From: Escherichia coli
Lineage (GTDB): Bacteria; Pseudomonadota; Gammaproteobacteria; Enterobacterales; Enterobacteriaceae
Reading direction: 5' to 3' (one strand)
Assembly (NCBI RefSeq): GCF_050320075.1
Contig: NZ_CP190018.1
Length of the DNA stretch: 64,000 bases
The notes beneath the pieces were generated by a model that saw only the letters and a list, made by a program, of their open reading frames with translations, made no database searches and was not told the origin of the DNA. Shown piece by piece: positions 19,854-46,890 of the stretch (positions are counted from its first letter, which is position 1; the number at the start of each line of letters is the position of its first letter). A program made the translations under genes and the position numbers.

Positions 19854-20609
<756 letters not shown>

Positions 20610-20655
20610 TTTTTACCGTTGCATCATGTCGCCCAATATGATGCTTGCTCGTACC

Positions 20656-20688
20656 AGGCCCCTGCAATTTCAACAGGGGCCTTTTTTT
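20656..20688 (+). terminator. Rho-independent terminator after cutC
   Basis: Stem AGGCCCCTG/CAGGGGCCT followed by T7. Confidence 0.8.
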
Positions 20689-26783: not shown

Positions 26784-27130
26784 TCAGAAAAGAGAAGATT
26801 GCTGTGGAATAGCCGGAACTGCTCCGATCTCTGGAAGCGTTTTACGTAAGTCTTCCCACAGGGTATGTACCAGTTCCGGGGCCTGGGCAATATCTGGCGT
26901 ATGTAAAAAAAGATAAGGCGTAGTGGTCTGATGCCACTGCGCTAATTTTTGTAACCAGACCTGAAATAATTCCCGGTTTTGCGTCATATCATCACTACCG
27001 ATAAAACGGATCAGCGGATTTGTCGCCGTCAGTACAGCATGTACCGGAACTTTAGGTTTTTTTCGTTGAGCGTCGCGAATAGCTTCACTGTGTGGACGTG
27101 CTGCATGAACCGGGCGGCTGTCTAAAATCA
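26784..27130 (-). pseudogene. yecE: yecE 3' fragment (C-terminal ~114 codons), separated from its 5' half by a 12.2 kb insertion
   Basis: Translation ...ILDSRPVHAARPHSEAIRDAQRKK...QQSSLF continues in frame from the 5' fragment at 39369 once the insert is removed; the ORF-track start at 27134 is a TTG artefact. Confidence 0.85.
27124..27130. repeat. attL core (AAAATCA) of the yecE insertion
   Basis: Identical 7-mer at 39363-39369; left flank joined to right flank restores yecE codons ...NRVILDSR... Confidence 0.65.
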
Positions 27131-27189
27131 TCAAGGTCTAAATGCACTACATGGGCACCTAAACATATACATGTGATGTTGAGGTGTTA

Positions 27190-27210
27190 GAAAGGGGGCT
27201 GTTCAGCCCC
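27190..27210 (-). terminator. Rho-independent terminator for the 306-aa leftward gene
   Basis: On minus strand GGGGCTGAACAGCCCC hairpin followed by CTTTCT, immediately after the stop at 27219. Confidence 0.7.
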
Positions 27211-27218
27211 TGATAGAC

Positions 27219-28139
27219 TTAGTAATTATCCCTGACAACTTCATCATATCTTTCAATGAAGGTTAGTTGTTTATTACTTCCATTATAACTATCAACCCAT
27301 TTGTCTACAGCTTCATCGAATAGAAATAAAAAATCCGTATAATTTATATACACTACATTATCATAATATTGGGTTGGGTGACCTCTTTTACATACAGCAA
27401 TACTAAGACGTCTTTCTTTACCCTGAGTAACTTTGTGTGAATTAAGATTAGTCATGTGAAGCAATGAGTTCCTTAATTCATATAATTCGTCGGAAGTTAC
27501 TCCAAGTTTTTGTATATCTGAGTATGTATCTAACCAATTTTGAAAGACTCTTCTTTTGTTTCCAAACTCAATATAAGCTATAGTATCAATAAATGACATT
27601 AATAGCTTGAAGCTTGACAAGTAATGTTTTTTGTTAAACAGAAGCTTTATTGGTTCCATATGGTCATCATTAAGAAGTTCCTTAATGTGAAAACCATCAT
27701 CTTTCATATACTTATCAAGATAGTCTGGCAAGTCTTTTACACCTTCAATGTGATAGTTAGGTGTGTGCTTATTCCTTAATTGCTCTGACATTGATAACTG
27801 AATATCATATTGTAATTTGCCTTTAACAACGGGGGTGACTATAGCTAAAGGGTTTTCAGGTGCATTTTGAGCTTCTAATGCTAATTCAAACGGAGCAAAA
27901 GGATTACCAATCCGCAAATTTGCATTATATCTTTCAAGTGTCAATTTGTCATTTTCTAAAACAGAAGGGTGTATCCCATAAAATAAACGACAAGAAGCTA
28001 AGTCAATCTCCAAATTCCGCTTTAAAAAATCTAATTTTTGCGCATCATCGCCATCATGTTCGTGAGGTACTATTCCGGCATGTGTGATATGAACTCCATC
28101 AGGACTAAAGCAAAATATGTTGTAGATAATCTCTTTCAT
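27219..28139 (-). CDS. Hypothetical 306-aa protein, AT-rich, counter-oriented accessory gene in the element; has one R-x4-H (RNSLLH) motif
   Basis: Uninterrupted ORF with ATG start, own terminator, transcribed opposite to the rest of the element; no family recognised by eye. Confidence 0.6.
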   Translation of the reverse strand: MKEIIYNIFCFSPDGVHITHAGIVPHEHDGDDAQKLDFLKRNLEIDLASCRLFYGIHPSVLENDKLTLERYNANLRIGNPFAPFELALEAQNAPENPLAIVTPVVKGKLQYDIQLSMSEQLRNKHTPNYHIEGVKDLPDYLDKYMKDDGFHIKELLNDDHMEPIKLLFNKKHYLSSFKLLMSFIDTIAYIEFGNKRRVFQNWLDTYSDIQKLGVTSDELYELRNSLLHMTNLNSHKVTQGKERRLSIAVCKRGHPTQYYDNVVYINYTDFLFLFDEAVDKWVDSYNGSNKQLTFIERYDEVVRDNY

Positions 28140-28400
28140 ACCATTCTAACCTTCAGTGAAAATAAAGTTTTAACTATCATTAGATTATGAACAATCACAA
28201 TTGGCCTGTAAATAACAGGGCATAAACAGGTTCGTTTAGCTTGATTTTATCACTATAACTGTCTGATTTAACGGTAACTCACCAAGTATACACACAGTAA
28301 TTACACAATCCTGTTATTATGTAACTTATTGAAATATATAAATAATTTTTACATTCTTTGTTTGGGGTAAGCTGTGTAATGTTAGTCGTCCCTCTCCAGA

Positions 28401-28414
28401 CACTATATATAGTG
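28401..28414. promoter_or_regulatory. Perfect 14-bp palindrome CACTATATATAGTG in the 1.1 kb ORF-free spacer
   Basis: Read directly; embedded in a run of TATATA-containing repeats. Confidence 0.4.
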
Positions 28415-29102
28415 CTATATACAGGACTATATAACGATATATAGATGTTTGGTCACATGGTATAACTATCAAACCACTTAACGATTTCCTACGTGAAAGT
28501 TAGAAAGTGATAGTTATAGTTACCTTGTCAAATCTTCGTAGTCCCTTCTTAAAAAATCGTGAAAGGTAATCTTGTTATCTATACAGAATCTACGTAGATG
28601 CTTCTTAGTGCGCAAAACAGCTATTATGTTAAAAACGCACTGTATACGTATCAGTACTGATTTATAAGGGTTTTGTGTATTGGCTGATAAGAGGCTATAC
28701 AGCACCTTGAGAGCATGTCTTCTAAGTCATTGACATATAAGGTCACAGAAGTTTGTAGCTGTTACAGAGAAAACTGGATAGGACTTCACAGAACTATAAA
28801 ATGTTACAGCTATTGATAGGTGAAATCTTCTTGATAGATGCTTTGAAGTGTGGTGAAGGCTTTTTGAGGTGGGGCTAAACAGATATCATGAAGAAAGTCA
28901 ATAGTTGATTCGGTTTATCGAATAAACCTCATAGATATTTTAAAATTCTGCAAAGGGGGTCACATAGCTGGTGTGACGGGTACTTAGCAGCTACAGACAT
29001 CTATCAGATATTTTTGAAGATTTTTAGAAGGGGAATTTGAAGAGGGGCTACTACGATTTTATAAAAATTTTCAGATTCTGAAAAGTTACTGTACAGAATA
29101 TG

Positions 29103-29127
29103 TACAGATATCTTTAAAGTATCTGTA
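29103..29127. promoter_or_regulatory. Inverted repeat TACAGATA-N9-TATCTGTA (candidate operator) upstream of the MTase gene
   Basis: Read directly; adjacent direct repeats GTACAGA(A/T)AT and GATATCC x2. Confidence 0.4.
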
Positions 29128-29249
29128 AAAACTTTTAAGATAAAAGATAGATATCCCAGAAAGGATATCCGTTTAGAAAACCTATTAAGTATCTCTTAAA
29201 AGAGAGTAAACCTTGTCAAGAGTGATTGCAATAAAAATTTTTATTTCTT

Positions 29250-29912
29250 ATGTCAATTGAGTGTATTTTAATCGGGAAACATCATGGGGGTTCTGATTAC
29301 TGGAGAACTCCATTTTTGTTATTTAAGAACTTACACCGTGAATTTATTTTCAGTCTGGATGGTGCTGCAACTAAGCACGATACGTTATTACCCCGCTTTA
29401 CGGATGATATTCACAATCAGTCATGGGATGGTGAACGGGTATTCTGTAACCCACCATACAGCGACACTAAAACATTCCTCGTAAAAGCGTCTGAGGCAGA
29501 TTTATCGGTATTCCTGATACCGTACCGACCCCAAACCATATACTGGCTTAAGCACATCTTCACAAACCCGCTTTGCCATGAAATCCGTATTCTTCATCGT
29601 GCAGTTAAATACCTTCCACCAGCAGGGCATAACAGGCTTACTATTAGGTCGCCGTTTCCAAGTGCAGTCGTTGTTTTTAAAAAAGAACCACGCAGGCATG
29701 AAATTACGCAGATGGTTTGCTGTGCTGATACATTGCTACCGTTAACCATCATTAACAGAGGAGGCTTGAGAGGAAGGCCCACCATTTACCCACCTGAGAC
29801 GCTCGACAGCTTCATAAAACTATACAGGCAAGGCAAACCCATTAAGTGCATTGCAGATGCTCTCAGAATGCCTCTGAGCACGTCATACAGGATTGCTCAA
29901 AGGTTGAGCTAG
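29250..29912 (+). CDS. Phage-type DNA N6-adenine methyltransferase (Dam family) with C-terminal HTH-like tail
   Basis: SDYWRTPF...FSLDGAA...FCNPPY motifs typical of phage Dam MTases; C-terminal GRP...IADALRMPLSTSYRIAQRL resembles an HTH. Confidence 0.75.
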   Translation: MSIECILIGKHHGGSDYWRTPFLLFKNLHREFIFSLDGAATKHDTLLPRFTDDIHNQSWDGERVFCNPPYSDTKTFLVKASEADLSVFLIPYRPQTIYWLKHIFTNPLCHEIRILHRAVKYLPPAGHNRLTIRSPFPSAVVVFKKEPRRHEITQMVCCADTLLPLTIINRGGLRGRPTIYPPETLDSFIKLYRQGKPIKCIADALRMPLSTSYRIAQRLS

Positions 29913-30052
29913 AATTCTCATAAATATGGTCATTTACAAGACAGGTGATTTAGATATTAAGAGGTATCCCTGTGAACAATAAATGACCAATCAGTAATTA
30001 TCCTGTGAAATAATTGTTGCAATTTATAATCACACATGGTATAGTTTCATAG

Positions 30053-30197
30053 TGGACTGATAAAAAAGTTCATGTCTTGAAGTGGTAACACTTGGGGAGG
30101 TGTCAGATGATTGACGTATATTAACCTCTCATTCATGGTAATACCTCAGCGTTTTAATCATCGTACTGTTTCAGGCATGGACTTCTTTATCAGTCCA
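30053..30197. promoter_or_regulatory. 145-bp segment bracketed by a perfect 12-bp inverted repeat (TGGACTGATAAA / TTTATCAGTCCA) upstream of the initiator gene
   Basis: Read directly at 30053-30064 and 30186-30197. Confidence 0.4.
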
Positions 30198-30276
30198 TCA
30201 ATCCCCCAGATATTTTAATCACACAGGCTAATCGGTTTTATCCGGTTGGCCTTTTCACGTATGAGGTAATTTATGA

Positions 30277-31245
30277 ATGAAAAAAGAAACTAATGCTTTT
30301 ATTATGGTAGATAAACGAGTTGCACAATTCCCTAAAACATTAAAGCCAATTGACCGCTTGGTATATTTCACTATGCTGGATGGTGCTGATTATTACGAAT
30401 CTAAGTTCGGGAGATACGCACCAAGTATTGACTATTTGATGGTTATGTCTGGTGCTACACGTAATACAGTTATTGATTCACTTAAGAGACTTGAGTCACA
30501 CAGACTTATCGAAAAGACCAATGTAAAGGGTCAGCAAAGTATTTTTAAAGTATTCACGTTGGATGAGCGTCCAGAGGTCTTATCAGAACCTACCCTTGAT
30601 GAGCGTCGTAGAGCTAAATTATCAGGTCAACCAGAATCTGACAGTAACCCAACCAAAAATTGGTTACCTACCCAACCAGAATTTGGTTACCTACCTAACC
30701 AGAATTTGGTTACATGTAATACTGAATATAAAGACAAAAATATAAATACTGAAGAAGAAAGACTAAAAGGGAACTTTGAAGAAGAATCTCTTAAGAAGGG
30801 AGCTTCGCTCTGTGATTCACATGAATGTGATATTAAAGAAGATGACTTTCTTTCTTTGGATGAATTAAATGATTTTCTCTCTATGAATGAATCTGGCCTT
30901 GATAGTGAAGCTACTAAAGAGGCTGTTAAAAAGGAAGATAAAATCTCTGATGTGAATATCGATAGTGACCATAAAAACACACAGTGCCCCGCCACTGATG
31001 ATGAGATGGACCCCTTCGATGATTACCTTGATGAAGAGTCAGAGCGTGAAAAAGCCATTAAGAGGGTAGAGAAGAAAAAGAGATTCGAGCTTGCAAGACA
31101 AAAGAACAAAGTATCGGGTTTAGACCCATTCGATGACAGTGACGATGATGACTTTTCTTTCACACCAAGAAAGAAACAAACTCAGGATGACAAGAAGCAA
31201 AAAATTAAACCGAAGATGTATTTTGCTGGTGGAGGTATGCGCTAA
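30277..31245 (+). CDS. Putative replication initiator / replisome organiser (N-terminal winged-helix-like domain, acidic C-terminal tail)
   Basis: N-terminus resembles phage initiator DNA-binding domains; tandem iterons inside the ORF; highly acidic low-complexity C-terminal half. Confidence 0.55.
   Translation: MKKETNAFIMVDKRVAQFPKTLKPIDRLVYFTMLDGADYYESKFGRYAPSIDYLMVMSGATRNTVIDSLKRLESHRLIEKTNVKGQQSIFKVFTLDERPEVLSEPTLDERRRAKLSGQPESDSNPTKNWLPTQPEFGYLPNQNLVTCNTEYKDKNINTEEERLKGNFEEESLKKGASLCDSHECDIKEDDFLSLDELNDFLSMNESGLDSEATKEAVKKEDKISDVNIDSDHKNTQCPATDDEMDPFDDYLDEESEREKAIKRVEKKKRFELARQKNKVSGLDPFDDSDDDDFSFTPRKKQTQDDKKQKIKPKMYFAGGGMR
30641..30714. repeat. Tandem 23-bp direct repeats (iterons) inside the initiator ORF: TTGGTTACCTACC(C/T)AACCAGAAT
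   Basis: Two full units at 30660-30682 and 30683-30705 (1 mismatch) plus flanking partial units. Confidence 0.8.
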
Positions 31246-31541
31246 TGAAAGAATATCACGGTGAAAAGAGATACAAAGATTACCTGTTAAAGCGTTATAG
31301 CATTTCTCGTGAAGGCCACTTAATGAAGGATACTCACGGGGAAGTTTACCGGATTAGACCGAAGAAAGAAGGGAGGGATTATTTCTTTTACGATGGTGTG
31401 ACAGATTTAAAGATTGATGCTTTGAAGTTTGCGGCGCTGTATCATTATGATATCTGGGACTCAGTCCACCAGCTACGATTAAAAGACGGTGACCCCGGTA
31501 ATCTGAGGGCCACCAATATTATCAAGGGAAAGTGCCGGTAA
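31245..31541 (+). CDS. Small HNH_3/NUMOD4-like protein (98 aa), catalytic His not evident
   Basis: YSISREGHLMKDTHGEVYRIRPKKEGRDYFFYDG...LKDGDPGNLRATN resembles NUMOD4/HNH_3 layout; overlaps initiator stop. Confidence 0.45.
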   Translation: MKEYHGEKRYKDYLLKRYSISREGHLMKDTHGEVYRIRPKKEGRDYFFYDGVTDLKIDALKFAALYHYDIWDSVHQLRLKDGDPGNLRATNIIKGKCR

Positions 31542-31864
31542 GTCCACCAGCTATTTATTTATTGAAATCTCTATCTCAACACGAAGAAGTTTAAGTCGAA
31601 TTGTAAGCTTTGTCTTTTTTGTAATGACTCGATTCATAACGCAAAACACCAATAGCACAATAAATACCGCAAAGCCCAACGAGCTAAAACGATGAGATTC
31701 AATAATTGCTGTGAAAAAATCATGCATTAATTTTCCTTTTGCGAAAGGAAACAGCACCTGTATCAGCCCCTATAACCATAATATCATGTAAATGAGATGT
31801 TGACAATATGTTAAATAAATGTTATGATTGTAGTATGAGTAAGAGATTTAAGGAGATTTTTACA

Positions 31865-32155
31865 ATGACTCACACAGTTACGCGCCTTTTGCCAGAGGCA
31901 TTTGAACGACTGGCAGCAATCAAAGCCAAATATCCCGATATGAAGCACACAGCGCTTGTTGGAGAGCTTTTAAAAGAGTCGGTAACCCTGACCCCTTTCG
32001 ATAACGTTAAGGGCGTTGCAGAGGGTTCTAAGGCCATCAGAATCACAACGGACCAACTGGAACTACTCAAAGCACAGTCCGCAGTAGCAGGTTGCTCAAT
32101 GATTCAGGTGTTAAGCGCAAAGGTCCATCAATTAGCGGATAGGCTGGGGGTTTAA
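31865..32155 (+). CDS. Hypothetical small protein (96 aa)
   Basis: AAGGAG RBS 8 nt upstream of ATG at 31865; ORF-track start at 31808 is probably an extension; stop overlaps next gene (TAATG). Confidence 0.5.
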   Translation: MTHTVTRLLPEAFERLAAIKAKYPDMKHTALVGELLKESVTLTPFDNVKGVAEGSKAIRITTDQLELLKAQSAVAGCSMIQVLSAKVHQLADRLGV

Positions 32156-32580
32156 TGCTATGCACATTTGATTATCATGCGTTTTATCGCCATAGAGGCC
32201 ACCTTGTCCGTGAGAATAGCGGAACATGGAAAGATTTAACTCGTAATGCTGAACCCTTCACACACCAGCAATTAAAATCCCGCTTCTCCAGATGGAAGAA
32301 TGCACCAGCAGATACTGGTGATTTTGAGATTATCCATACCTTCGATTATGCCTCAGAAGATGACCTTCACGATGCAATTAAGCTGATTGAAGACTTCAAT
32401 ACCTCAGAAGATGTGGATGGTGACAAATATAAATCCCGTGGTAACCGCTATAACCGTGATGATATCACTCAGGCCATAAATGCTGGTCAATCTCAGCGAT
32501 ACATTACAGAAAAATATGGTATTTCACGGAGACAGTATTTCTACGTTAAATCATTGATTAATAAAGACAATTCAAAATAA
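32155..32580 (+). CDS. Hypothetical protein (141 aa) with C-terminal HTH-like segment
   Basis: Translationally coupled to upstream gene; C-terminus ...QSQRYITEKYGISRRQYFYVK resembles a Hin/resolvase-type HTH. Confidence 0.5.
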   Translation: MLCTFDYHAFYRHRGHLVRENSGTWKDLTRNAEPFTHQQLKSRFSRWKNAPADTGDFEIIHTFDYASEDDLHDAIKLIEDFNTSEDVDGDKYKSRGNRYNRDDITQAINAGQSQRYITEKYGISRRQYFYVKSLINKDNSK

Positions 32581-32741
32581 CCATCTCAGTAACGGTAGAA
32601 TGCACTTTACAGGCAGAGTTGCACCTTAATTTGATAAATTACCTTACCAGCCAGTGCAACTCCCTCTGTAACCCGCATGATTACTGGTCTCAGAATGGCT
32701 ATTTTAAGAGGTCTGAGATGTGTTTTGTAGGAGATTTAAAA

Positions 32742-33065
32742 ATGAACAACTTCCCATTACAGATTTTCGTTGATAACGACACCGCTATGATGGTGCAAAG
32801 CTTCAGTGATGCAGGTATTAGCATTGATTTTGACAGGCTGTTAAAGCTAATGGCTGATAATGAAGAAAACGTCTCTGACTTTATTCACTCGGTGGAGTTT
32901 AACGAGCCTCGAATGATGTTACCAATTACAGACAGTAATATGAAAAGATTGGTTATTGAGCAAACGAACAAATACAGTATTTCCCCAGAGCAATTTTTGA
33001 AAGGTGCTGTGACAATCCTGTACAGCGATAATATTTTGGTTACGGATTCCGTGAGGGTTCACTAA
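32742..33065 (+). CDS. Hypothetical small protein (107 aa)
   Basis: GGAG-type RBS before ATG at 32742; ORF-track start at 32619 is probably an extension. Confidence 0.45.
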   Translation: MNNFPLQIFVDNDTAMMVQSFSDAGISIDFDRLLKLMADNEENVSDFIHSVEFNEPRMMLPITDSNMKRLVIEQTNKYSISPEQFLKGAVTILYSDNILVTDSVRVH

Positions 33066-33359
33066 TGGGCTTAATAATTGCTTGGACGTTGCTTGGCTTA
33101 TTTGTTGGTTGCTGGGTAGGCAGCACAGTAAATAGAAATTGATGTTACCAATCTGTTAAAAAGCTGTTGACAAATAACCTTAAGCATGAGATGATGGTAA
33201 TAGGGGAGAGCAACTCTCTCTTATTTTTCTTTCAAAATAATCCGATGGATGGATATTCTGAATTGGAAAGGTGCAATGCTTTTCGTCATGGCCTTTCAGT
33301 TTAGTCTGAGAGGCTATCTCAAAAAGTGCTTAATCATTCATTGAACCCTTTACAGCTTT

Positions 33360-33387
33360 GCCCTAACTCATGATTAGGGCTTTCTTT
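33360..33387 (+). terminator. Rho-independent terminator-like hairpin
   Basis: Stem GCCCTAA/TTAGGGC with 7-nt loop followed by TTTCTTT. Confidence 0.55.
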
Positions 33388-33456
33388 AAGAGTTTTTAAA
33401 CAGAGCTTTTAAAGAAAGTTTTTCCTGAAACTTCGTTAACGTTAAAGCAAACCTTC

Positions 33457-33520
33457 AAAGCCCTTCACAGATGAGGATGATTCCATGAATATCCGAATCA
33501 CCTATGTTTAGGGCTTTTTT
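33457..33520 (+). ncRNA. Long-loop hairpin with U-tract (candidate small RNA 3' end or attenuator)
   Basis: Outer stem AAAGCCCT/AGGGCTTT enclosing inner GGAT/ATCC stem, followed by T6. Confidence 0.3.
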
Positions 33521-33636
33521 CAGCTTTTAAAAAGCATACTTGGCAAACGCCTTTTAAGCCTCTTCTAAGTTCGAGGATGTCAGGTGTGCTTTTTAAAAAC
33601 TGAAACATAAATTATCTTAGAAGAGGAAAGGTATTA

Positions 33637-34341
33637 ATGGCTATCCGTGATGAAAATGAAATGATTATTGAAAACAAACCAAGTGCACTTGATATTCACG
33701 AATTAAGTTTGCGTGAATCTTTTGATAGAGCTTGGCGGGAATCACACGAAGTAAATAAAGGTCCATATATTCCACCAGAACCACTCGAGATTCCAAGAGT
33801 TGAAATTGATTTTTCTATGAACGAACGGTGTGAACTTGATTTGAAGTTGAAGCTACAACGCCGATATTTCCAAGCTATTAAAGACTCTCAAGAAGCAATG
33901 AGAAGTGTTTATGAGAAAATTCAGTCCAAGCTTGAAGACGAAATTGACGAAATGGCTATTTTGATGGAGCTTCAAACCAATCCTTATGCTTATTTCTCTC
34001 GACTAGACCGTGACGGTTGGGGGTATGACCCTGTAGAGATTGGTAAAGTGATTGCAGATTTACCAGAAGGTCAAAGGGTTATTCGTACGGAAAGGGCCAT
34101 CAGAGCGCCACATCAACTGTCTCTAATTGTTGCTGATAAATCACAAGCTGAGCTTGAAGAAATTGCCAAAGAGAAACTGATGAAAGCAAGAGAAAATGAG
34201 ATTAATTTGCTGAAATCAAGACTGGCTAAGCTGATTAGTGACCATCAAGCGCTGGCTAAGGAGTACCGTCAAGAGTTGGCACAGATTATCAGCTTCAATG
34301 ATTTTCTGAGTGTTCCACGAGAATTTAGCAAGGCTGTTTGA
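33637..34341 (+). CDS. Hypothetical protein (234 aa), charged coiled-coil-rich
   Basis: ORF with ATG and GAGG-type RBS; no family recognised. Confidence 0.55.
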   Translation: MAIRDENEMIIENKPSALDIHELSLRESFDRAWRESHEVNKGPYIPPEPLEIPRVEIDFSMNERCELDLKLKLQRRYFQAIKDSQEAMRSVYEKIQSKLEDEIDEMAILMELQTNPYAYFSRLDRDGWGYDPVEIGKVIADLPEGQRVIRTERAIRAPHQLSLIVADKSQAELEEIAKEKLMKARENEINLLKSRLAKLISDHQALAKEYRQELAQIISFNDFLSVPREFSKAV

Positions 34342-34364
34342 TTATGAATTAAAAGAGGTGATTA

Positions 34365-34583
34365 ATGTATGAAGACCGTTTGGAAACTATCAAGGCAGTT
34401 TGTGAAAAACTTAAAAACCAACCACGTAAACCAAAAACGGTAAAGAGTAAGCATCAGCCTGTCACCTCAAACAGCAAAATAAAGATTCGCAAAATTCCTT
34501 CGTGGTGCATTGACCGTATTCCGGTTGGTTCAAGAATTATTCGTGAAGATGGTGATTATCATTGGGTATCAGTTGTTGGTTAG
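34365..34583 (+). CDS. Hypothetical small basic protein (72 aa)
   Basis: RBS GAGGTG before ATG; gene-dense context. Confidence 0.45.
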   Translation: MYEDRLETIKAVCEKLKNQPRKPKTVKSKHQPVTSNSKIKIRKIPSWCIDRIPVGSRIIREDGDYHWVSVVG

Positions 34584-34671
34584 TTAGTAAAAATCTACGG
34601 GAGAGATTATCGAGTGATATCGGTAGCTCTCCCTTTTTCGTATATGAACACTTAAGAGGTGAAAAATATGA

Positions 34672-36804
34672 ATGAGCAAATTCACAGTTGATAGTTTTAT
34701 CGTTGAATTAAGCTTCAATGAAAACATTATTAAGGGCTTGCAAAGAGTTGAAAAGGCAGCTTTGCAGTCAGCACAAAGAATTGAAAAGAACCTAAATAAA
34801 GGTTTCAGGATTAATACAAAGCAGCTTGATAGTAATTTAACGGCTTCTTTAGGGCAGCTTGAAAGGAAGTTTAATAAGGCCTTTGACAAGATTGAACAGA
34901 GAGCAAGAAATACTAAAGCTTTCCAGTTTACCACCAGATTTAATGACACTGTTAATCCTCCAAAACAACCGAGACAGCCACGAATTAGCGGCAACAGAGC
35001 AATCACAGCAGCTTACTCAGCGAATATGAGCAAGCTAAAAGGCTTTGACCCTATTTTGCAGAAATACATCAAATCTCAGTTTTACGGGCTATCTGCTAAA
35101 GCCGGTTCAATGGATTCTTCAAAATTCAATGAGAAGTTAGCTCAGTTAAACGCTTCAGTCAGAGAAGCAATTGCTAAAGCCAGAGGTCATACATCCACCA
35201 GCATTAATGGTGACAGAGCAGCTAATAGTCTTGATAACCTGTCTTCAGCAGCAGTTAAAACAGCAGGTGCATTTATCTCAATGCAGGCTGTATTAGCCAG
35301 TTATCAGAAGATTATGGAAATTGGTTTACAGCGTGCAAGTGCTGAACGTTCAATTGATTTCGTATTTGATAAAGATGCAGGTCAAGTAAAAGAGTTCACA
35401 AAGTCATTAGCTCAAACAACGGGTTTAGATATCGCTGAACTGCAATCACAGTTTGCTGGTTTTGGTGCTTCAGCTAAAGAGTCTATGGGCATTCAAGGTT
35501 CTGAAGAACTTTTTAAAAATATGATTGGCTATGCTCGTCTGATGGGGAGAAGTGAAGAAGAGATTAAGCGAGCACTGACAGCATTATCACAGATGGCTGG
35601 TAAGGGTCAGGTTATGGCTGAAGAGCTTAAGGGGCAATTAGCTGAAGCTGTTCCTGGTATGGTTCAGGTATTCGCTAAAGCAACCGGAAGGAATGAACAA
35701 GAGCTATTTGATGCCATGAAGAAGGGGGCTTTAAAATCTGCCGATACTCTTCAGAAGGTCACTCAGGAACTGAATAAACAAATCACCGCTAAAGGTGGCT
35801 GGAAAGCTATTTCAGAAAGTACACAGGCACAACTAGGGAACCTGAAAAACTCTTGGAATACCACGCTTGATAGTATCTTCAGAGGTTCTGAAGATGGTCT
35901 GCAAGATTTTACAAGAAGCTTAACAACGCTTTTAAACGCTCTTGGTGGAAGTGGTAAAAGTCTTGGTGAATCTCTTGGTAGTCTCATGACTTCTATGTCA
36001 CATGGTGTCGATTCATTGACTGATATCAGCTACAGGGTAAGAGCATTCTTCGATGAGGTGACATTAGCTTACCGTTCACTAAATGACACTCAGAAAAAAA
36101 TTGTTGATGGTTTATCTGATGGGTTAATTGATGGTTTGAAGATGCTTGCCGTAGCTGTTACTGCTCAAAAGGCTGCAAATGTAGCTGGAGGCTTGTTAAA
36201 CCTTGCAAATGCTGTTACTTCATTCGGTGATGCTGTTAATAAAGCTAAAGCTGGCAAGGCTGGTTCTTCAGGTGGTGCGCTAAATAAAGTTGGTAGAGTT
36301 GTTCTTTATGCTGAGTTGGTGAACTTTGCTCTTGATAATTTAAACCCTGAAGCGGCTAAGAATCCGAACTTACACCAATCAGGTATTGGAACAGAGACAA
36401 ACTTCAACCCTGAATACAAAGGCGATTCATCTAAACCAAACCAAATTAATGATGGATGGGCTAAGATTGGTAGTTCTATCGCTGACTGGTTTAATGGTGC
36501 GGCTAATAAAATTGCTAACTTCCAAGACCCGATGAATAACTTTGTTAATAACACACAATCAACTCCACCAGCTATCACAGGTGACATGGTTAATAGCAAT
36601 GCTCAACTTGCTATGGCTGTATCAGAGTTAGGAAGAAAGGTAGACGCTTTAACAGTAGAAGCTAAGAAGCCTTTATCAGTTAATATCAAAGGTGAAGCAA
36701 TTGTTAGACCGGATGAACCAGCTTTCTTTACTTTCAATCAATCAGCTAATGACCAGTTCACGCAGGATATGCTCTTAAGTTCAAGCTATCCAGAGGAAGA
36801 ATGA
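34672..36804 (+). CDS. Tape-measure-domain-like protein (710 aa)
   Basis: Central segment ...MAEELKGQLAEAVPGMVQVFAKATGRNEQELFDAMKKGALKSADTLQKV... resembles the conserved phage tape-measure domain; Ala/Gly/Ser-rich low-complexity C-terminal part. Confidence 0.55.
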   Translation: MSKFTVDSFIVELSFNENIIKGLQRVEKAALQSAQRIEKNLNKGFRINTKQLDSNLTASLGQLERKFNKAFDKIEQRARNTKAFQFTTRFNDTVNPPKQPRQPRISGNRAITAAYSANMSKLKGFDPILQKYIKSQFYGLSAKAGSMDSSKFNEKLAQLNASVREAIAKARGHTSTSINGDRAANSLDNLSSAAVKTAGAFISMQAVLASYQKIMEIGLQRASAERSIDFVFDKDAGQVKEFTKSLAQTTGLDIAELQSQFAGFGASAKESMGIQGSEELFKNMIGYARLMGRSEEEIKRALTALSQMAGKGQVMAEELKGQLAEAVPGMVQVFAKATGRNEQELFDAMKKGALKSADTLQKVTQELNKQITAKGGWKAISESTQAQLGNLKNSWNTTLDSIFRGSEDGLQDFTRSLTTLLNALGGSGKSLGESLGSLMTSMSHGVDSLTDISYRVRAFFDEVTLAYRSLNDTQKKIVDGLSDGLIDGLKMLAVAVTAQKAANVAGGLLNLANAVTSFGDAVNKAKAGKAGSSGGALNKVGRVVLYAELVNFALDNLNPEAAKNPNLHQSGIGTETNFNPEYKGDSSKPNQINDGWAKIGSSIADWFNGAANKIANFQDPMNNFVNNTQSTPPAITGDMVNSNAQLAMAVSELGRKVDALTVEAKKPLSVNIKGEAIVRPDEPAFFTFNQSANDQFTQDMLLSSSYPEEE

Positions 36805-36967
36805 TTTCTTATATATCCGTGTGCTACGTGATTTCTTCTGAACAGATATACCCACTAAAAATTATTTTTTACGTAGCTCACGCTTAACAGAGAAAATACT
36901 TATATATCAAAGGCTTGGTTAAAAATGATTAAAATACACTAAGCCTTTGAAATCAAAGGAGAATTTA

Positions 36968-37741
36968 ATGATTTACTCTAATCAGATTCGTTACAGTGGT
37001 AAAGATGGCGTTTACTTTCATCTACAAGGCCAGCCAGATAATTTCTTGTCACTATCAGCTACTGAGAACATGGAATTTGACAGCCCTATGATGGTTACCA
37101 CTCAAAATATGCAATCAGGGCAGACTGTCACAGATAATGTAATGCGTTCACCCAGAACTATTTCAATCAGTGGTGTGGTTGTAGTTGGTGAATCCGGTAG
37201 TATCCTTATCTCAAGAGATAATAAGCTGGTGGAAAACTTCATAGACACTCTTGAAAACTGGCGTGACCAGAAGCAAATTATCTCAGTTGTCTGTAAAGAT
37301 GGTATTAAGATTGACGACTCAATTATTACAAACTTTAAAGCCTCTAAAGATGTTGGTATTGCCAATGGTCTTAGAATCCAATTAACTTTTCAGGAAATTA
37401 ACTTTAAAGCTATTGTGGGTCAGACTGATATCTCGGCTGCGACCGGAAGGACTTCTACCACAAGTGATGGTGGTGCTACCAGTAAAAAGAATACAGGGAA
37501 CACTACGACAAGCTTAGGTAACGGTATGTTGATGTGTCAGGAGCTATATAATCGCTCTACGAGTGAACTTACTAATGAGCAACTTCAAGCCCGTATCAAT
37601 TGTGGTAAAAATGTCAGAGTTAAGAACGGAAAAAGCACCTTCTCAGATGCCGCTAATGAGCAAGCTTCAAAGGTGCTTAATAATGCTGGTACAGGTAGTA
37701 CTTTGAAGAAGTATTCTGTTAATCCTAACAAGCGATACTGA
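36968..37741 (+). CDS. Hypothetical protein (257 aa), possible virion/tail-associated
   Basis: AAGGAG RBS before ATG at 36968 (ORF-track start 36947 is TTG); directly follows the tape-measure-like gene. Confidence 0.45.
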
Positions 37742-37755
37742 CGATAGAATCTCAA

Positions 37756-39279
37756 CTATATGATAACCTCATCAACATCTATTAAACCCCTCTCAGTGAC
37801 TTCAGAAAGCGACTGTATAGCCTCTGTAACGTTGTCTGAGGGGTTTTCTGTTATTGGTAAGGTGATTGCTTTACCGTTGTGAAAAGTTACTTTACAGCGA
37901 CGTTTAGCAGTATTTAAAACGACCTCTTTAACAGCACTTTTGATTATCAGTTGTGCTTCAATCCTTCCCGCCTTTGTAGTCAAGTCACAATCAGACAAAC
38001 AACCCACATCAATAGATTTAAGGCGTTGTGTCTCCTTCTCGATATCCGCATCAACTTGTGATAGCTCATTCTTTAGTTGTCTTAGTTTGCTGGTAATAGC
38101 GGACAAGTCTTCAATTTCAAGTGATAGCTGTACCAGCTTTTCAATATTGCTTGAGATGTGTTCACGGTGTAGCTTCAGTGTGTCTATGGTATTCGTCATA
38201 TCGCTATCAAATCGGTCAAGACGAGATAGCAGGGCAAGCAATGTACCATCGGTTTGCTTACGTGAAAGTCCTTTAGCACTACAACGGTTTTCATTACGAA
38301 GAGGACAACGATAAATCCCGTTTCTTGTATCGCTAAAGCCTGTGATAATCAAAGCATGACCACATTCAGAACAACGGATAACACCTTTGAAAAGATTCAC
38401 AGCCATTGGCTTATCTGAAGCAGGTTTTCTACCGTAACGAGCATATGATAGTTGTTGAACTTTGTAGAATGTTGTTTCATCTATAATTGCAGGATAATAA
38501 CCAGATATCTCCTCACAGCCTTTAGGTGTGAAGTAACCAATTACAGAGCGATTCTTCAAAAGGTCTTGCACTGAGGTTTGACCAAACTTACCTGCTTTGT
38601 ACTGGTTAAGCGTCTGGTGACCTTCAGCATTAAGAGTTCTGACAATCTCCCAGATAGACTTACCCTCTAACCGTAGCTGAAAGCACCTCTTCACAGTCTC
38701 CACTTTCTCAGGTATCACAGAGAAGCTTTTACGGTCATCATTAAGCTTAAGCCATGCAGGACAACGCCTAGAAATCTTGATACCAGCTTTAGCAGCTTCT
38801 TTCTTTGCATCCCATGCAGCTTGTATACGCTCAGCCTTACGTAATGATTCCTCATGCGCCCTTTGCATTATCAAAATGCTTTTAATCAGAGCTAACGGGT
38901 CTTTAAGAGATTCCCTTGTGTAATGTTCACCATCGGACAGGGTGACTACATCTACACCAGAGCGAAGAATGTTTCTGAGTAGCTCACTTGCTTGGTCTAC
39001 GTCCTGACGTGAGAGACGGTCTAAACTCTCGATTAGTAGTGTATCACCAGCTTTAACAAGCCCTTTCTCGATAGCGGTTAAAAAGTCACCTAAGCCACCT
39101 TTCAAGTGCTTACCAGTGAACCCGCTAACGCCTAAATCACGAAAAGTAAGGGATTCATCCAGATAGTACTCAGGATGAGCCTTAAGCCAATCAGTGACCA
39201 TCTTAGCCTGTCGTCTTAATGAGTCGCCTCTGGATTGCTTCTCAGATGAAAACCGGATGTAACTGATTGCACGTTTCAT
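37756..39279 (-). CDS. Large serine recombinase (integrase)
   Basis: 507 aa; N-terminal resolvase-type catalytic domain (YIRFSSEKQ with catalytic Ser), recombinase domain, Cys-rich zinc ribbon (CSECGH...YRCPLRNENRC), C-terminal coiled coil; adjacent to attR. Confidence 0.9.
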   Translation of the reverse strand: MKRAISYIRFSSEKQSRGDSLRRQAKMVTDWLKAHPEYYLDESLTFRDLGVSGFTGKHLKGGLGDFLTAIEKGLVKAGDTLLIESLDRLSRQDVDQASELLRNILRSGVDVVTLSDGEHYTRESLKDPLALIKSILIMQRAHEESLRKAERIQAAWDAKKEAAKAGIKISRRCPAWLKLNDDRKSFSVIPEKVETVKRCFQLRLEGKSIWEIVRTLNAEGHQTLNQYKAGKFGQTSVQDLLKNRSVIGYFTPKGCEEISGYYPAIIDETTFYKVQQLSYARYGRKPASDKPMAVNLFKGVIRCSECGHALIITGFSDTRNGIYRCPLRNENRCSAKGLSRKQTDGTLLALLSRLDRFDSDMTNTIDTLKLHREHISSNIEKLVQLSLEIEDLSAITSKLRQLKNELSQVDADIEKETQRLKSIDVGCLSDCDLTTKAGRIEAQLIIKSAVKEVVLNTAKRRCKVTFHNGKAITLPITENPSDNVTEAIQSLSEVTERGLIDVDEVII

Positions 39280-39346
39280 TGTTCACCTCACCAATAGCAG
39301 TTGGGCTTGTACCAACCCCTAGATTGTATCGCTTTAGATGGTGTAT

Positions 39347-39841
39347 TTAAACGTGTCTAATAAAAATCACCCGATTAACGCCGCGCTGATGTAAACCGCG
39401 ATTAAGCGTTTGTTCCTCTTCCCCTTTGGCGAAAAACTGTGGATGGCGGACTTCCACACCATAATTAAATTCGCCGGGAAGGGAATCGAGAAAATGCCAA
39501 AGCGCAGGCAGATCCCGTGGGCCAAATGTGGCAGGCAGTTGCAGCCAGTATTGCCCAATGCGCGGCGCTAACGGTGACATGCGGGTCAAAAATTCAGTCA
39601 CTAAATCATCGCAATGCCGTAATGCTGCCTGATGCGAAATGGTCGCCGGAAACTTAAAACAGAAGCGAAAATTATCTGTGGTCTGCTCACGCCAGCGCAG
39701 GACAACCTCGGATTTCGGCAGGGCGTAAAGCGTGGTGTTGCCCTCCACACAGTTAAAGTGGCGGGCATACTCTTCAAGGCTGGTGATCCCCAACCGCACC
39801 CATTTAGGATGCGACCATTGCGGCAGACCGATGTAAATCAT
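39347..39841 (-). pseudogene. yecE: yecE 5' fragment (N-terminal ~158 native codons, reads 6 codons into the insert before a stop)
   Basis: Translation [29 protein letters not shown]... (DUF72); 158 + 114 codons reconstitute a 272-aa protein. Confidence 0.85.
39363..39369. repeat. attR core (AAAATCA) of the yecE insertion
   Basis: Identical 7-mer to 27124-27130. Confidence 0.65.
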
Positions 39842-43859: not shown

Positions 43860-44381
43860 ATGGCTATTATTCTCGGCATTGACCCGGGTTCGCGCGTGAC
43901 CGGCTATGGCGTCATCCGCCAGGTAGGCAGGCAACTCTCCTACCTGGGTAGCGGATGCATACGCACCAAAGTGGATGATTTACCGTCTCGTCTGAAGCTC
44001 ATCTATGCGGGCGTGACGGAAATCATCACCCAGTTCGAGCCTGATTATTTCGCCATTGAACAAGTCTTTATGGCGAAGAACGCTGACTCAGCCCTGAAAC
44101 TGGGTCAGGCGCGCGGCGTGGCGATTGTGGCGGCGGTGAATCAGGAATTGCCGGTATTTGAATATGCGGCACGTCAGGTAAAGCAAACGGTGGTAGGTAT
44201 TGGTAGTGCTGAAAAAAGCCAGGTGCAGCATATGGTCCGCACCTTGCTGAAACTGCCCGCTAATCCACAGGCGGATGCTGCCGATGCATTAGCTATCGCG
44301 ATTACCCATTGTCACGTCAGTCAGAATGCGATGCAGATGAGCGAATCGCGGCTGAACCTGGCGAGAGGGCGACTGCGTTAA
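43860..44381 (+). CDS. ruvC: Holliday junction resolvase RuvC
   Basis: 173 aa from [18 protein letters not shown]... Confidence 0.95.
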
Positions 44382-44382
44382 G

Positions 44383-44985
44383 TTATACCGCCTCGGTCAG
44401 TTCCGGCTGAGGCGTTTCCACTCCCTCCGCATGAATCAACACCAAACCCGGATGATGCCACAAACTGGCTGGCGTGACGGTTTTACGCTCCCACGGAATA
44501 GAACCCAGGAACCAGAATTTCCAGAAAGTGAGTTTTGCATTCGGATTGCTATTTAACAATTCTCCAAACGTCTCTATTTCACCCACCGGAATACATAGCG
44601 CCTCTTTATAAATATCAAAAACAAATTTTGAACAGAACTGGCGCGAAGATTCGTATTTAAAACCGGTGTGGTAAAGTTTGCGTAGCCGGGAGGGAACCTG
44701 TTCAACAATTCGTTGTTTTTGTTGTTCTGTCAGCCCAGCGTCTAATCGCTTTATAGCATAGCGTTGATTAGACGAACGTTTAATAAAACGAGATAGCGTG
44801 GTGATGGTTGAAAGGGGAACCCGGCTTTCTGCAACCAGGAAGTCTTCACCGTTATGACCGATAATGATCCCGACGTGATTACTCCAGCAATTTGATGCAG
44901 CTGATATTTGACCAAATAAGGCAGCACCTATACATGTAAAGACGATATCTCCAATTTCATATTCAGCAGGGTAATTAATATTCAC
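44383..44985 (-). CDS. yebB: YebB (DUF830 family), GTG start
   Basis: 200 aa from (V)[19 protein letters not shown]...; ORF-track start at 45084 is an upstream extension. Confidence 0.8.

Positions 44986-45876: not shown

Positions 45877-46890
<1,014 letters not shown>

Follow-up and report, generated by a model that had tools for sequence, protein, structure and literature searches.

The spacer at positions 28140–29249 of the window, which here means the whole 64-kb stretch of Escherichia coli DNA that was analysed, lies in a chromosomal island between a leftward cargo gene and a rightward gene for a Dam-family methyltransferase (MTase). This spacer is probably the cis-acting hub of a family of E. 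coli satellites that exploit virulent Felix O1-like myoviruses (Ounavirinae), and its sequence is best read as a mosaic of DNA sites that contains no gene. Two segments in its right part are homologous to phage DNA, and a satellite-specific core in its middle begins at a site that resembles dif, the chromosomal site used by the host recombinases XerC and XerD (XerCD). The analysis establishes these homologies, the pattern of conservation along the spacer, the match to an Xer site and the complementary distribution of this site and a resolvase gene among related islands. The original prediction, made from the sequence of the stretch, had proposed that the spacer could be a divergent promoter/operator switch, a replication origin, a packaging site or a non-coding RNA locus; the connection to a helper phage, the core (28612–28900) and the dif-like XerCD site (28607–28634) had escaped it.

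Helper-like DNA in the island and its spacer

A sensitive search of 50,697 phage records with the spacer matched 222–254 genomes, almost all of them Ounavirinae (Felixounavirus, Mooglevirus and Suspvirus), and nearly all of the matches fall in unannotated DNA. The DNA that the island has in common with the complete genome of Felixounavirus vB_EcoM_D4 (D4) comprises only two spacer segments, called classes A and B here, a gene for a Dit-like distal tail protein and the two extreme ends of a tape measure gene. The Dit-like protein shows 70% amino acid identity to the product of the Felix O1 gene located directly after the tape measure gene, and its gene is 78% identical at the nucleotide level to that of D4. 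The best matches of the tape measure protein are also Ounavirinae, at about 30% identity. When the tape measure gene is compared with its phage counterpart (L053 28225–30453; L numbers denote individual loci), the N-terminal 47 residues are 64% identical, the last 30 nt are 97% identical and the middle has diverged, which suggests that contacts with helper tail parts have been kept while the body of the protein differs.

Island and phage are close in GC content (38.6% and 38.8%, respectively), and both are devoid of GATC: the island has 0 versus 51 expected and the 89-kb D4 genome (L053 and L054) 0 versus 301 expected, compared with 4.6 per kb in the host flanks. The last GATC before the island is at 27009 and the next one is at 39511. 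In related contigs, GATC is likewise confined to the host flanks. The island has no GATC at all, yet it encodes a Dam-family methyltransferase.

Class A (28934–29096) resembles the sequence across the right boundary of the direct terminal repeat (DTR) of the phage. The D4 record carries an exact 581-bp DTR at both ends; the D4 termini have been called with PhageTerm (PMC11737134), and 581-bp terminal repeats have been reported independently for Felixounavirus Pr103Blw (PMC8303462). Window positions 28934–29089 align with D4 531–686, the D4 boundary between 581 and 582 falling between 28984 and 28985, and the homology covers about 50 nt inside the phage repeat and about 105 nt outside it. The blocks common to phage and satellites are GATATTTTAA, TGCAAAGGGG, GGG.TAC..A.CAG (across the cut), AGATATTTTTGA and TTTATAAAAA. 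Despite divergence and indels between the blocks, TGCAAAGGGG and TTTATAAAAA are each retained in 29 of 31 relatives. In the phage, the repeat is located in an ORF-free gap (ORF, open reading frame) of about 1.5 kb between convergent terminators, with no gene downstream. Because the phage site lies between convergent terminators without a downstream gene, a role at the DNA level is favoured, and class A is the best candidate for a packaging signal at which the helper terminase would recognise and cleave DNA. What stands of the packaging site in the original prediction is this homology of 28934–29096 to the boundary of the 581-bp repeat. Other islands of the family carry an extra piece from inside the terminal repeat (D4 245–303).

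Class B (29132–29249) resembles a regulatory region of the phage. Positions 29132–29189 are 86% identical over 58 nt to most Felixounaviruses (D4 8800–8745, in the opposite orientation); class B is 80% identical over 81 nt to Mooglevirus Sf13 and also matches JH2. Its phage counterpart is a divergent intergenic region, and two divergent transcription units have been described for Felix O1 (PMC3185647). The phage genes that match the island orientation of class B belong to the transcription unit in which a tail protein and the endolysin are encoded. The GATATCC pair at 29150–29170 had been called a direct repeat; read on one strand, it is an inverted repeat, GATATCC...GGATATC, which occurs once in the island and once in the D4 genome. 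This inverted repeat is common to the phages and is retained in 11 of 31 relatives, exactly those with an MTase-type right end. The -35-like box ACCTTGTCAAG lies about 45 nt past the operator repeat, and the start codon of the MTase gene, the first gene of the rightward operon, follows within 31 nt. The segment at 29210–29249 is presumed from its sequence to be a helper-dependent promoter of this operon. The promoter/operator reading of the original prediction is upheld for the right-hand third of the spacer, where homology identifies 29132–29249 as a copy of a phage inverted-repeat operator and -35-like box, and does not extend to the rest. A divergent repressor switch like that of the Staphylococcus aureus pathogenicity islands (SaPI) was rejected, the leftward gene being a swappable cargo gene without a recognisable domain.

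In the phage, 8 kb separate class A from class B and the two have opposite orientations; in the island, they are neighbours with the same orientation. Because they are rearranged relative to the phage, the spacer is regarded as an assembled mosaic and not as a leftover phage fragment. Overlapping terminator-like palindromes (29089–29127) sit between the two helper-like elements. Terminator-like matches number 3 versus 0.5 expected, and the exact palindrome form is found in 8 of 31 relatives. Short words are also enriched in the spacer in the same orientation as in the phage gap: CTATA occurs 6 times versus 0.5 expected, TACAG 8 times versus 1.8, and TGTTA 5 times versus about 2. A CTATATA-repeat cluster at 28401–28445, within the conserved left block of the spacer, has similar counterparts in the terminus gaps of phage AYO145A (L002 3478–3512) and D4 (1024–1051).

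The phage terminus gap itself (AYO145A, L002 2071–3627; D4, L053 1–1032 and L054 43527–44439) contains strand-biased CTTGTTA(A/G) arrays, with 29 TGTTA words versus 2.5 expected. The phage repeat starts with GCCCCCTT, and an inverted AAGGGGG lies about 30 nt before the end of the repeat. Sister islands with longer spacers, which span 2.1–2.6 kb of unannotated DNA, hold a copy of an element of about 70–85 nt (L014 3441–3523, L010 3483–3566, L005 10234–10323). This element occurs three times in the non-coding DNA of the phage early region (D4 44258–44346, 44399–44473 and 45928–45996) and may be another captured helper promoter.

The conserved core and its dif-like site

The spacer is non-coding, as originally described. 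The sole ORF of at least 60 aa is a 61-aa frame on the minus strand (28520–28705), which is frameshifted in 19 of 31 relatives. A small conserved protein-coding gene, which the original prediction had considered as another explanation of the region, is not indicated: among 32 family sequences, no frame has an excess of variable sites at third codon positions. A 33-aa ORF (28715–28816) stays open, with substitutions on first and second codon positions. The high density of palindromes was also confirmed, with 14 perfect palindromes of at least 8 nt versus 5.8 ± 2.5 in 300 dinucleotide-preserving shuffles (about 2.5-fold; 2 of the 300 shuffles attain this count) and 5 inverted repeats with a short loop versus 0.95 expected. 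All the motifs quoted by the original prediction are present where it had placed them. However, these conspicuous motifs mostly differ from the conserved parts of the spacer. The 14-bp palindrome CACTATATATAGTG, which had been given the most weight, is present but is retained in only 3 of 31 relatives, and TACAGATA-N9-TATCTGTA is retained in 8 of 31. The TGTTACAG repeat falls inside the highly conserved core, where it forms part of a tandem repeat of about 40 nt, TCACAGAA-N-TGTTACAG-N-GATAGG x2, at 28743–28822.

To obtain the pattern of conservation, 32 distinct copies were taken from E. coli genomes and from metagenome contigs and aligned, the metagenome copies being fetched with a 20-mer from the core (28660–28679). 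Positions 28322–28900 are well conserved in the family and 28612–28900 most so, with a majority frequency mostly of 0.9–1.0 per 10-nt bin; the flanks of this core show 75–88% pairwise identity. When the island was tiled against about 40 related loci, core tiles were found in 33–34 of them at about 95% identity, and the adjoining MTase gene was detectable in 12–17. Full-length copies of the core occur in 291 (about 5%) of 5426 complete E. coli genomes, and phages lack it.

In two sister islands, L004 and L005, a gene for a small serine resolvase (L004 9198–9767, L005 9396–9944; 182–189 aa) replaces the stretch between about 28457/28543 and 28930/28945, and the left block at 28322–28521 is retained. 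The L004 protein matches the Pfam Resolvase family with E = 6e-35, and a recombinase is annotated under the spacer match in 17 of 40 sampled E. coli records. Because these sister islands carry a resolvase gene in the place of the core, a site for a host recombinase was searched for. The sequence AGTGCGCAAAA-CAGCTA-TTATGTTAAAA at 28607–28634 is identical to dif at 19 of 22 arm positions. It is the sole match with no more than three mismatches in the 64 kb, and no such match appeared in 100 shuffles. Of 5426 E. coli genomes, 5423 were confirmed to contain the dif 28-mer used as the query, the median being one copy; the 28-mer also matched 744 places in plasmids, mostly at 80–95% identity, which are probably plasmid Xer sites.

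The XerD arm does not vary among the 32 relatives; the XerC arm reads AGTGCG(T/C)A(A/G)AA, apart from rare deviations at its positions 1 and 4. The centre varies among sublineages, being CAGCTA, AAGCTA or GAGTCA. Exactly one Xer site is found in each core-bearing island examined, and none in the phage or in the resolvase-type variants L004 and L005. By the match of its arms, and by their constraint around a free centre, 28607–28634 is assigned as a putative XerCD site at which recombination is predicted. The idea of a pdif module was dropped, as there is no second Xer site in the island, and a decayed recombinase gene in the spacer was likewise discarded, as tblastn with both small recombinases of the sister islands found nothing there.

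The remaining parts of the spacer are less uniform. Its first approximately 180 nt move together with the cargo gene. A sigma-70-like promoter for this gene lies here on the minus strand (TTTACA-17-CATAAT, 28212 to 28184; 10 of 12 matches in a promoter scan). An element at 28204–28232 that borders the cargo slot appears by eye to include a short CCTGT/ACAGG hairpin. At the core's other end, the 34-nt segment at 28901–28934 has copies of 94–100% identity elsewhere in L014, L015, L026, L033, L050 and L051.

A proposed satellite cycle and the readings that compete with it

The island has several properties expected of a satellite: it bears an integrase and occupies a chromosomal site, and it has its own replication module and an incomplete set of virion genes. 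In the proposed cycle, helper infection would activate the satellite operon, and the serine integrase would excise the island. The Rep protein would fire at iterons in its own gene, and the helper terminase would cut the resulting concatemers and package them. After entry into the next cell, the multimer would be reduced by XerCD (or the resolvase) to monomer circles, which would then integrate. Because packaging of concatemers would deliver multimers, a resolution site would be needed; such packaging would be like that of the phage-inducible chromosomal minimalist islands (PICMI), and seven island copies come near the helper length (85.6 kb versus the 89.4-kb helper genome, by arithmetic only).

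Each part of the spacer would serve a step of this cycle or its regulation. The segment at 28140–28321 would belong to the swappable cargo gene and carry its promoter, and 28322–28521 would be a conserved block with a CTATATA cluster in common with the phage terminus gap. The segment at 28532–28901 would act as a module for the resolution of multimers or concatemers, consisting of the dif-like Xer site and a highly conserved flank of about 265 nt, with the resolvase gene taking its place in sister islands. The helper terminase would recognise and cut satellite DNA at 28934–29096, the mimic of the right boundary of the repeat. Through the copied operator and -35-like box at 29132–29249, a helper factor would turn on the operon of MTase, rep and tail genes. 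More tentatively, the islands may be the first satellite family of terminal-repeat-packaging, Felix O1-like virulent phages, and it is conceivable that the hub of about 0.9 kb is a full hijacking cassette that combines a genome-end cut site, a borrowed operator and resolution by host XerCD.

Several observations weigh against the satellite hub. Induction, excision, packaging and transfer are all inferred from sequence. Overall, class A is only about 71% identical to the phage, and this identity resides in short blocks. The left DTR boundary of the phage has no significant counterpart in this or related islands, so a complete DTR-type packaging substrate is only hypothetical. No packaged or circular form was found among island-sized metagenome contigs. 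Neither a canonical -10 near the -35-like box nor a Shine-Dalgarno sequence for the MTase gene was found in the spacer sequence and promoter scan. The conservation at 28660–28679 arises partly by construction, because the metagenome copies were fetched with that 20-mer. The complementarity of Xer site and resolvase gene rests on two fully examined variants and on the 17 of 40 sampled records annotated with a recombinase. The accessory sequences of the plasmid sites cer and psi lie on the XerC side. In the island, the long conserved flank sits on the XerD side of the Xer site and there is no ArgR box in 28140–29249, and for these two reasons the site is not a strict cer-type site. A resemblance to the left boundary at 28591–28603, TACGTA(G/A)ATGCT, was dismissed as a mimic, as it is not conserved in the family.

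Class A might have another function, with the remaining model unchanged. It is unlikely, though worth weighing, that 28934–29096 responds to the helper as a promoter or regulatory element, or acts as an origin of the helper type, and is not a site of packaging or cleavage. It contains AT-rich promoter-like words and, on the minus strand, a sigma-70-like site (TTTTCA-17-TAAAAT, 29084 to 29056), and the absence of a left-boundary mimic from the island would be in keeping with such a role. Phages with terminal repeats, such as T7, place promoters and origins near their genome ends, and the Felix O1 gap, which is packed with TGTTA words, could include an origin. However, in the phage, convergent terminators bound the gap around this element and neither strand has a gene downstream, the homology is centred on the mapped repeat boundary, and the island already has its own Rep and iterons. 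It is considerably less probable that the whole spacer is the replication origin of the element. The spacer is AT-rich, rich in repeats and palindromes, and adjoins the replication module. However, it contains no regular iteron array: its repeats are two-copy, irregular and mostly unconserved. The only regular array, three iterons of 23 nt, is inside the rep gene (30647–30715), outside the spacer, which argues against the origin reading of the original prediction. The lambda origin is likewise located within gene O.

A non-coding RNA, whether a small RNA (sRNA), a long leader or an antisense regulator, would explain why a core of about 290 nt without a coding signal is more conserved than the neighbouring genes, and a weak plus-strand promoter-like site (28493–28520) and a terminator-like hairpin (29089–29107) could delimit a transcript. 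Nevertheless, this reading of the original prediction is very doubtful. Rfam gave nothing in the spacer at gathering thresholds in a search of the whole window, and only chance-level matches (E of at least 2) in permissive mode; the core folds like its shuffles, with z-scores of -0.03 and +0.04 on the two strands. The covariation analysis proposed at the outset was carried out with RNAalifold on the family alignment, and its covariance terms are about zero or unfavourable for three sub-regions and for the whole stretch on both strands. Moreover, the core opens with a DNA recombination site and is replaced by a gene for a resolvase protein in sister islands. An RNA that lacks structure is still conceivable.

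The spacer could instead be inert debris of phage DNA or pseudogenes in a defective prophage, its repeats being incidental, since the island holds only two virion genes and the spacer holds scraps of phage non-coding DNA. This is highly improbable, because the core is more conserved and more widely kept than the adjoining genes, the same short blocks persist in the pieces derived from phage in 29 of 31 relatives, and these pieces are rearranged relative to the phage and not collinear with it. The island ORFs are intact, the family occurs in 5–10% of E. coli genomes at three sites, and tblastn with the sister-island resolvases, the only genes covered by this search, found no remnant. No better are the chances that the dif-like site is an attachment site of the kind used by integrative mobile elements exploiting Xer (IMEX), through which the element or a sub-module would integrate at chromosomal dif instead of resolving multimers. 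The match to dif is strong, and Xer-exploiting integrative elements are well known from CTXphi, TLC and the gonococcal island; IMEX are also the subject of a preprint. However, all copies examined lie in islands at yecE, yciI or ymdF beside a serine integrase and none at dif, the module that takes its place in sister islands is a gene of the resolvase family, which speaks for resolution, and the centre CAGCTA, compared with TGTATA in dif, disfavours recombination with dif.

The island, its distribution and its comparison with known satellites

The chromosomal order in the window is flhBA-argS-cutC-torYZ-cmoAB-yecN, the island, and yecD-aspS. GC falls to 35–42% across the island block. The two halves of the split DUF72 pseudogene flank the island in the identical record NZ_CP123240. 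The island boundaries are approximate, and the att core is unmapped. Coordinates are collected in Table 1.

Table 1. Features of the island and of the spacer at 28140–29249, in window coordinates
Feature	Position	Strand	Basis or remark
Whole island	27132–39364		~12,233 bp; 38.6% GC; splits yecE (DUF72)
Variable cargo gene, 306 aa	27219–28139	minus	ORF list
Cargo-linked variable segment	28140–28321	minus	most relatives lose homology left of ~28322
29-nt conserved element bordering the cargo slot	28204–28232		93–97% identity in relatives whose surrounding sequence differs
Conserved left block	28322–28521	plus	majority frequency ~0.9, but 0.65 at the 14-bp palindrome
14-bp palindrome CACTATATATAGTG	28401–28414
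dif/cer-like XerC-XerD site AGTGCGCAAAA-CAGCTA-TTATGTTAAAA	28607–28634	plus	11-bp XerC arm, 6-bp centre, 11-bp XerD arm
Satellite-specific non-coding core	28612–28900		family alignment; absent from phages
TGTTACAG...GATAGG x2	28758–28820
34-nt movable segment	28901–28934		indel in family alignment; a minority of relatives have it here, and in others it lies ~1.5 kb downstream
Mimic of the right boundary of the phage DTR (class A)	28934–29096	plus	homology to Ounavirinae ORF-free gap
Overlapping palindromes CTGTACAGAATATGTACAG and TACAGATA-N9-TATCTGTA	29089–29127	both	terminator-like on both strands; inverted repeats I2 and I7
GTACAGA(A/T)AT x2	29091–29110
Inverted repeat TACAGATA-N9-TATCTGTA	29103–29127
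Helper-type operator with GATATCC-N6-GGATATC (29150–29170)	29132–29189	plus	phage counterpart AGATATC-N6-GATATCT
-35-like box ACCTTGTCAAG, with AT-rich sequence reaching the MTase start codon	29210–29249	plus	aligned with JH2 and Sf13 (two phage genera)
Orphan Dam-family MTase fused to resolvase-type helix-turn-helix (HTH)	29250–29912	plus	Pfam Dam and HTH_7; PHROG 111; PADLOC orphan MTase
O-like rep gene	30277–31245	plus	PHROG replication-initiator families 270, 428 and 678, lambda O-like among them
Three tandem head-to-tail 23-nt iterons inside rep	30647–30715	plus	repeat family D1
Tape measure gene, 710 aa	34672–36804	plus	related to Felix O1-like phage tail gene
Dit-like distal tail gene	36947–37741	plus	Pfam PF21821; 70% aa identity to Felix O1 gene
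Large serine recombinase (integrase), 507 aa	37756–39279	minus	RefSeq: recombinase family protein

The cargo gene has no match in Pfam, NCBIfam or PADLOC, and its slot is filled by other genes in relatives. Defence-system models run on the cargo and other island genes returned the orphan MTase only. The iterons in rep, with the sequence ACCCAACCA(A/G)AAT(T)TGGTTACCT, are probably the replication origin of the island. The similarity of the serine recombinase to XisF and CcrA in NCBIfam is sub-threshold and far under the curated cut-offs. The island also encodes several small proteins. No capsid, portal or terminase match was found among the island proteins in PHROG and NCBIfam scans and in the comparison with the D4 genome; one protein, p141, was considered as small-terminase-like and set aside, with only a sub-threshold HTH match and no PDB relative.

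A search for tRNA and tmRNA genes found none, and the only Rfam matches in the window are the host sRNAs MicL (20381–20688, 368 bits) and C0465 (7045–7122, 100 bits), which are unrelated to the island. A second ORF-free stretch of the island (33066–33636, 571 nt) precedes the gene for a 234-aa coiled-coil protein. It is 88–97% identical in 6–14 related loci and has no phage homology. The other intergenic regions of the island contain no copies of the spacer elements and no phage homology.

Of 5426 complete E. coli genomes, 549 (about 10%) contain spacer homologs, always on the chromosome and never annotated. Among the relatives examined, islands of the family occupy three chromosomal sites: in yecE, beside yciI and beside ymdF. 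No spacer match was found in the plasmid collection, and IMG/VR gave a single partial match. In a one-genome-per-species collection, the MTase query gave no relative, and a 20-mer scan gave chance matches in unrelated metagenome-assembled genomes only. In the metagenome contig CYGL01000620.1 (L030, 12,790 bp), the left end of one island copy is followed after about 1.7 kb by the right end of a second, non-identical copy, which suggests two related islands integrated in tandem. Strain 18AR0366 (L010 754–1734) carries IS5 between the yecE remnant and the cargo gene, which is 241 aa there versus 306 aa here. In L005, the element adjoins lambdoid prophage genes near yciI.

The family is distinct from PICI (chromosomal islands that are phage-inducible), from P4-like satellites and from PICMI, and resembles PICMI and the PICI-like elements (PLE) in lifestyle only. 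PHROG, NCBIfam and Pfam scans found no alpA, stl, terS or capsid-morphogenesis families of the PICI/SaPI type, and PHROG and NCBIfam scans found no match to the P4-like genes psu, sid, delta, alpA, epsilon or alpha-primase. Expression of P4 and its helper P2 is coupled by promoter cross-talk. The island operon behind a promoter/operator resembling that of the helper is reminiscent of this arrangement, but there is no sequence or protein homology, and the candidate helper is virulent and packages by terminal repeats instead of cos.

The integrase of PLE is a large serine recombinase. Like PLE, the island is a chromosomal element of 10–20 kb with an apparent tie to a virulent myovirus, an iteron-binding initiator of its own and an activation apparently wired to helper infection. 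In contrast, its host and helper differ from those of PLE, whose gene set is specific to Vibrio and phage ICP1. Nothing like that gene content was noticed, although the proteins were not set side by side, so the likeness is one of lifestyle and integrase class only. Features that set the present island apart from PLE are the helper-type tape measure and Dit homologues, the Dam-like MTase, the mimic of a terminal-repeat boundary and the host XerCD site. PICMI, satellites of virulent phages in Vibrionaceae, are packaged as a concatemer of helper length, about 8 copies or 49 kb (PMC10803314). Both PICMI and the island are without capsid-remodelling genes, and concatemer packaging would fit the island. 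However, gene content, insertion site and size all differ: PICMI are about 6 kb, have an int-alpA-prim core, lie next to fis and apparently use headful packaging, whereas the island is twice the size and has a serine integrase, tail genes and a site-specific terminus mimic.

The Xer site of the island shares with cer of ColE1, psi of pSC101 and dif a 28-bp length, an 11-6-11 layout, conserved arms and a variable centre. Plasmids use either an Xer site or a resolvase of their own, and the island site correspondingly occupies the niche of a resolvase gene. It differs from cer and psi by its location in a candidate phage satellite, by its conserved flank on the XerD side and by the lack of an ArgR box, and its activity is predicted only. 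Phage P1 carries the Cre/lox recombination module in a packaged element, where it circularises or resolves incoming redundant DNA and resolves multimers. The island would use the host XerCD, or a serine resolvase in sister islands, instead of an element-encoded tyrosine recombinase. With the terminal-repeat region of Felixounavirus, the spacer shares the blocks across the right boundary, the CTATATA cluster and the words CTATA, TACAG and TGTTA in the same orientation; by contrast, only about 160 nt can be aligned, the left boundary has no counterpart, and the dense CTTGTTA(A/G) arrays are weakly echoed in the island.

No satellite of Felix O1 or other Ounavirinae came to light in full-text literature searches, which also gave nothing relevant on tail genes or Xer recombination in satellites; for yecE, they returned Stx (Shiga toxin) prophages only. 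To our knowledge, the known satellites of E. coli, namely P4-like satellites, PICI and capsid-forming PICI (cf-PICI), exploit temperate helpers, and a satellite of a virulent, terminal-repeat-packaging phage would widen this picture. We know of no terminase recognition sequences for the Felix O1-like phage group. If the proposed packaging signal is correct, the shared blocks would be the first map of a Felixounavirus packaging signal and would point at candidate terminase recognition sequences. The apparent exchange of the Xer site for a resolvase gene suggests that concatemers are converted to monomer circles once they have been injected, and host Xer recombination would then be a new step in the life cycle of tailed-phage satellites. 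The absence of GATC from island and phage provides a compositional marker by which further elements of this kind might be detected. Typing of Salmonella and E. coli, biocontrol and therapy all make wide use of Felix O1-like phages. If the island, which is present in 5–10% of E. coli genomes, hijacks or interferes with these phages, phage efficacy and gene transfer would be affected.

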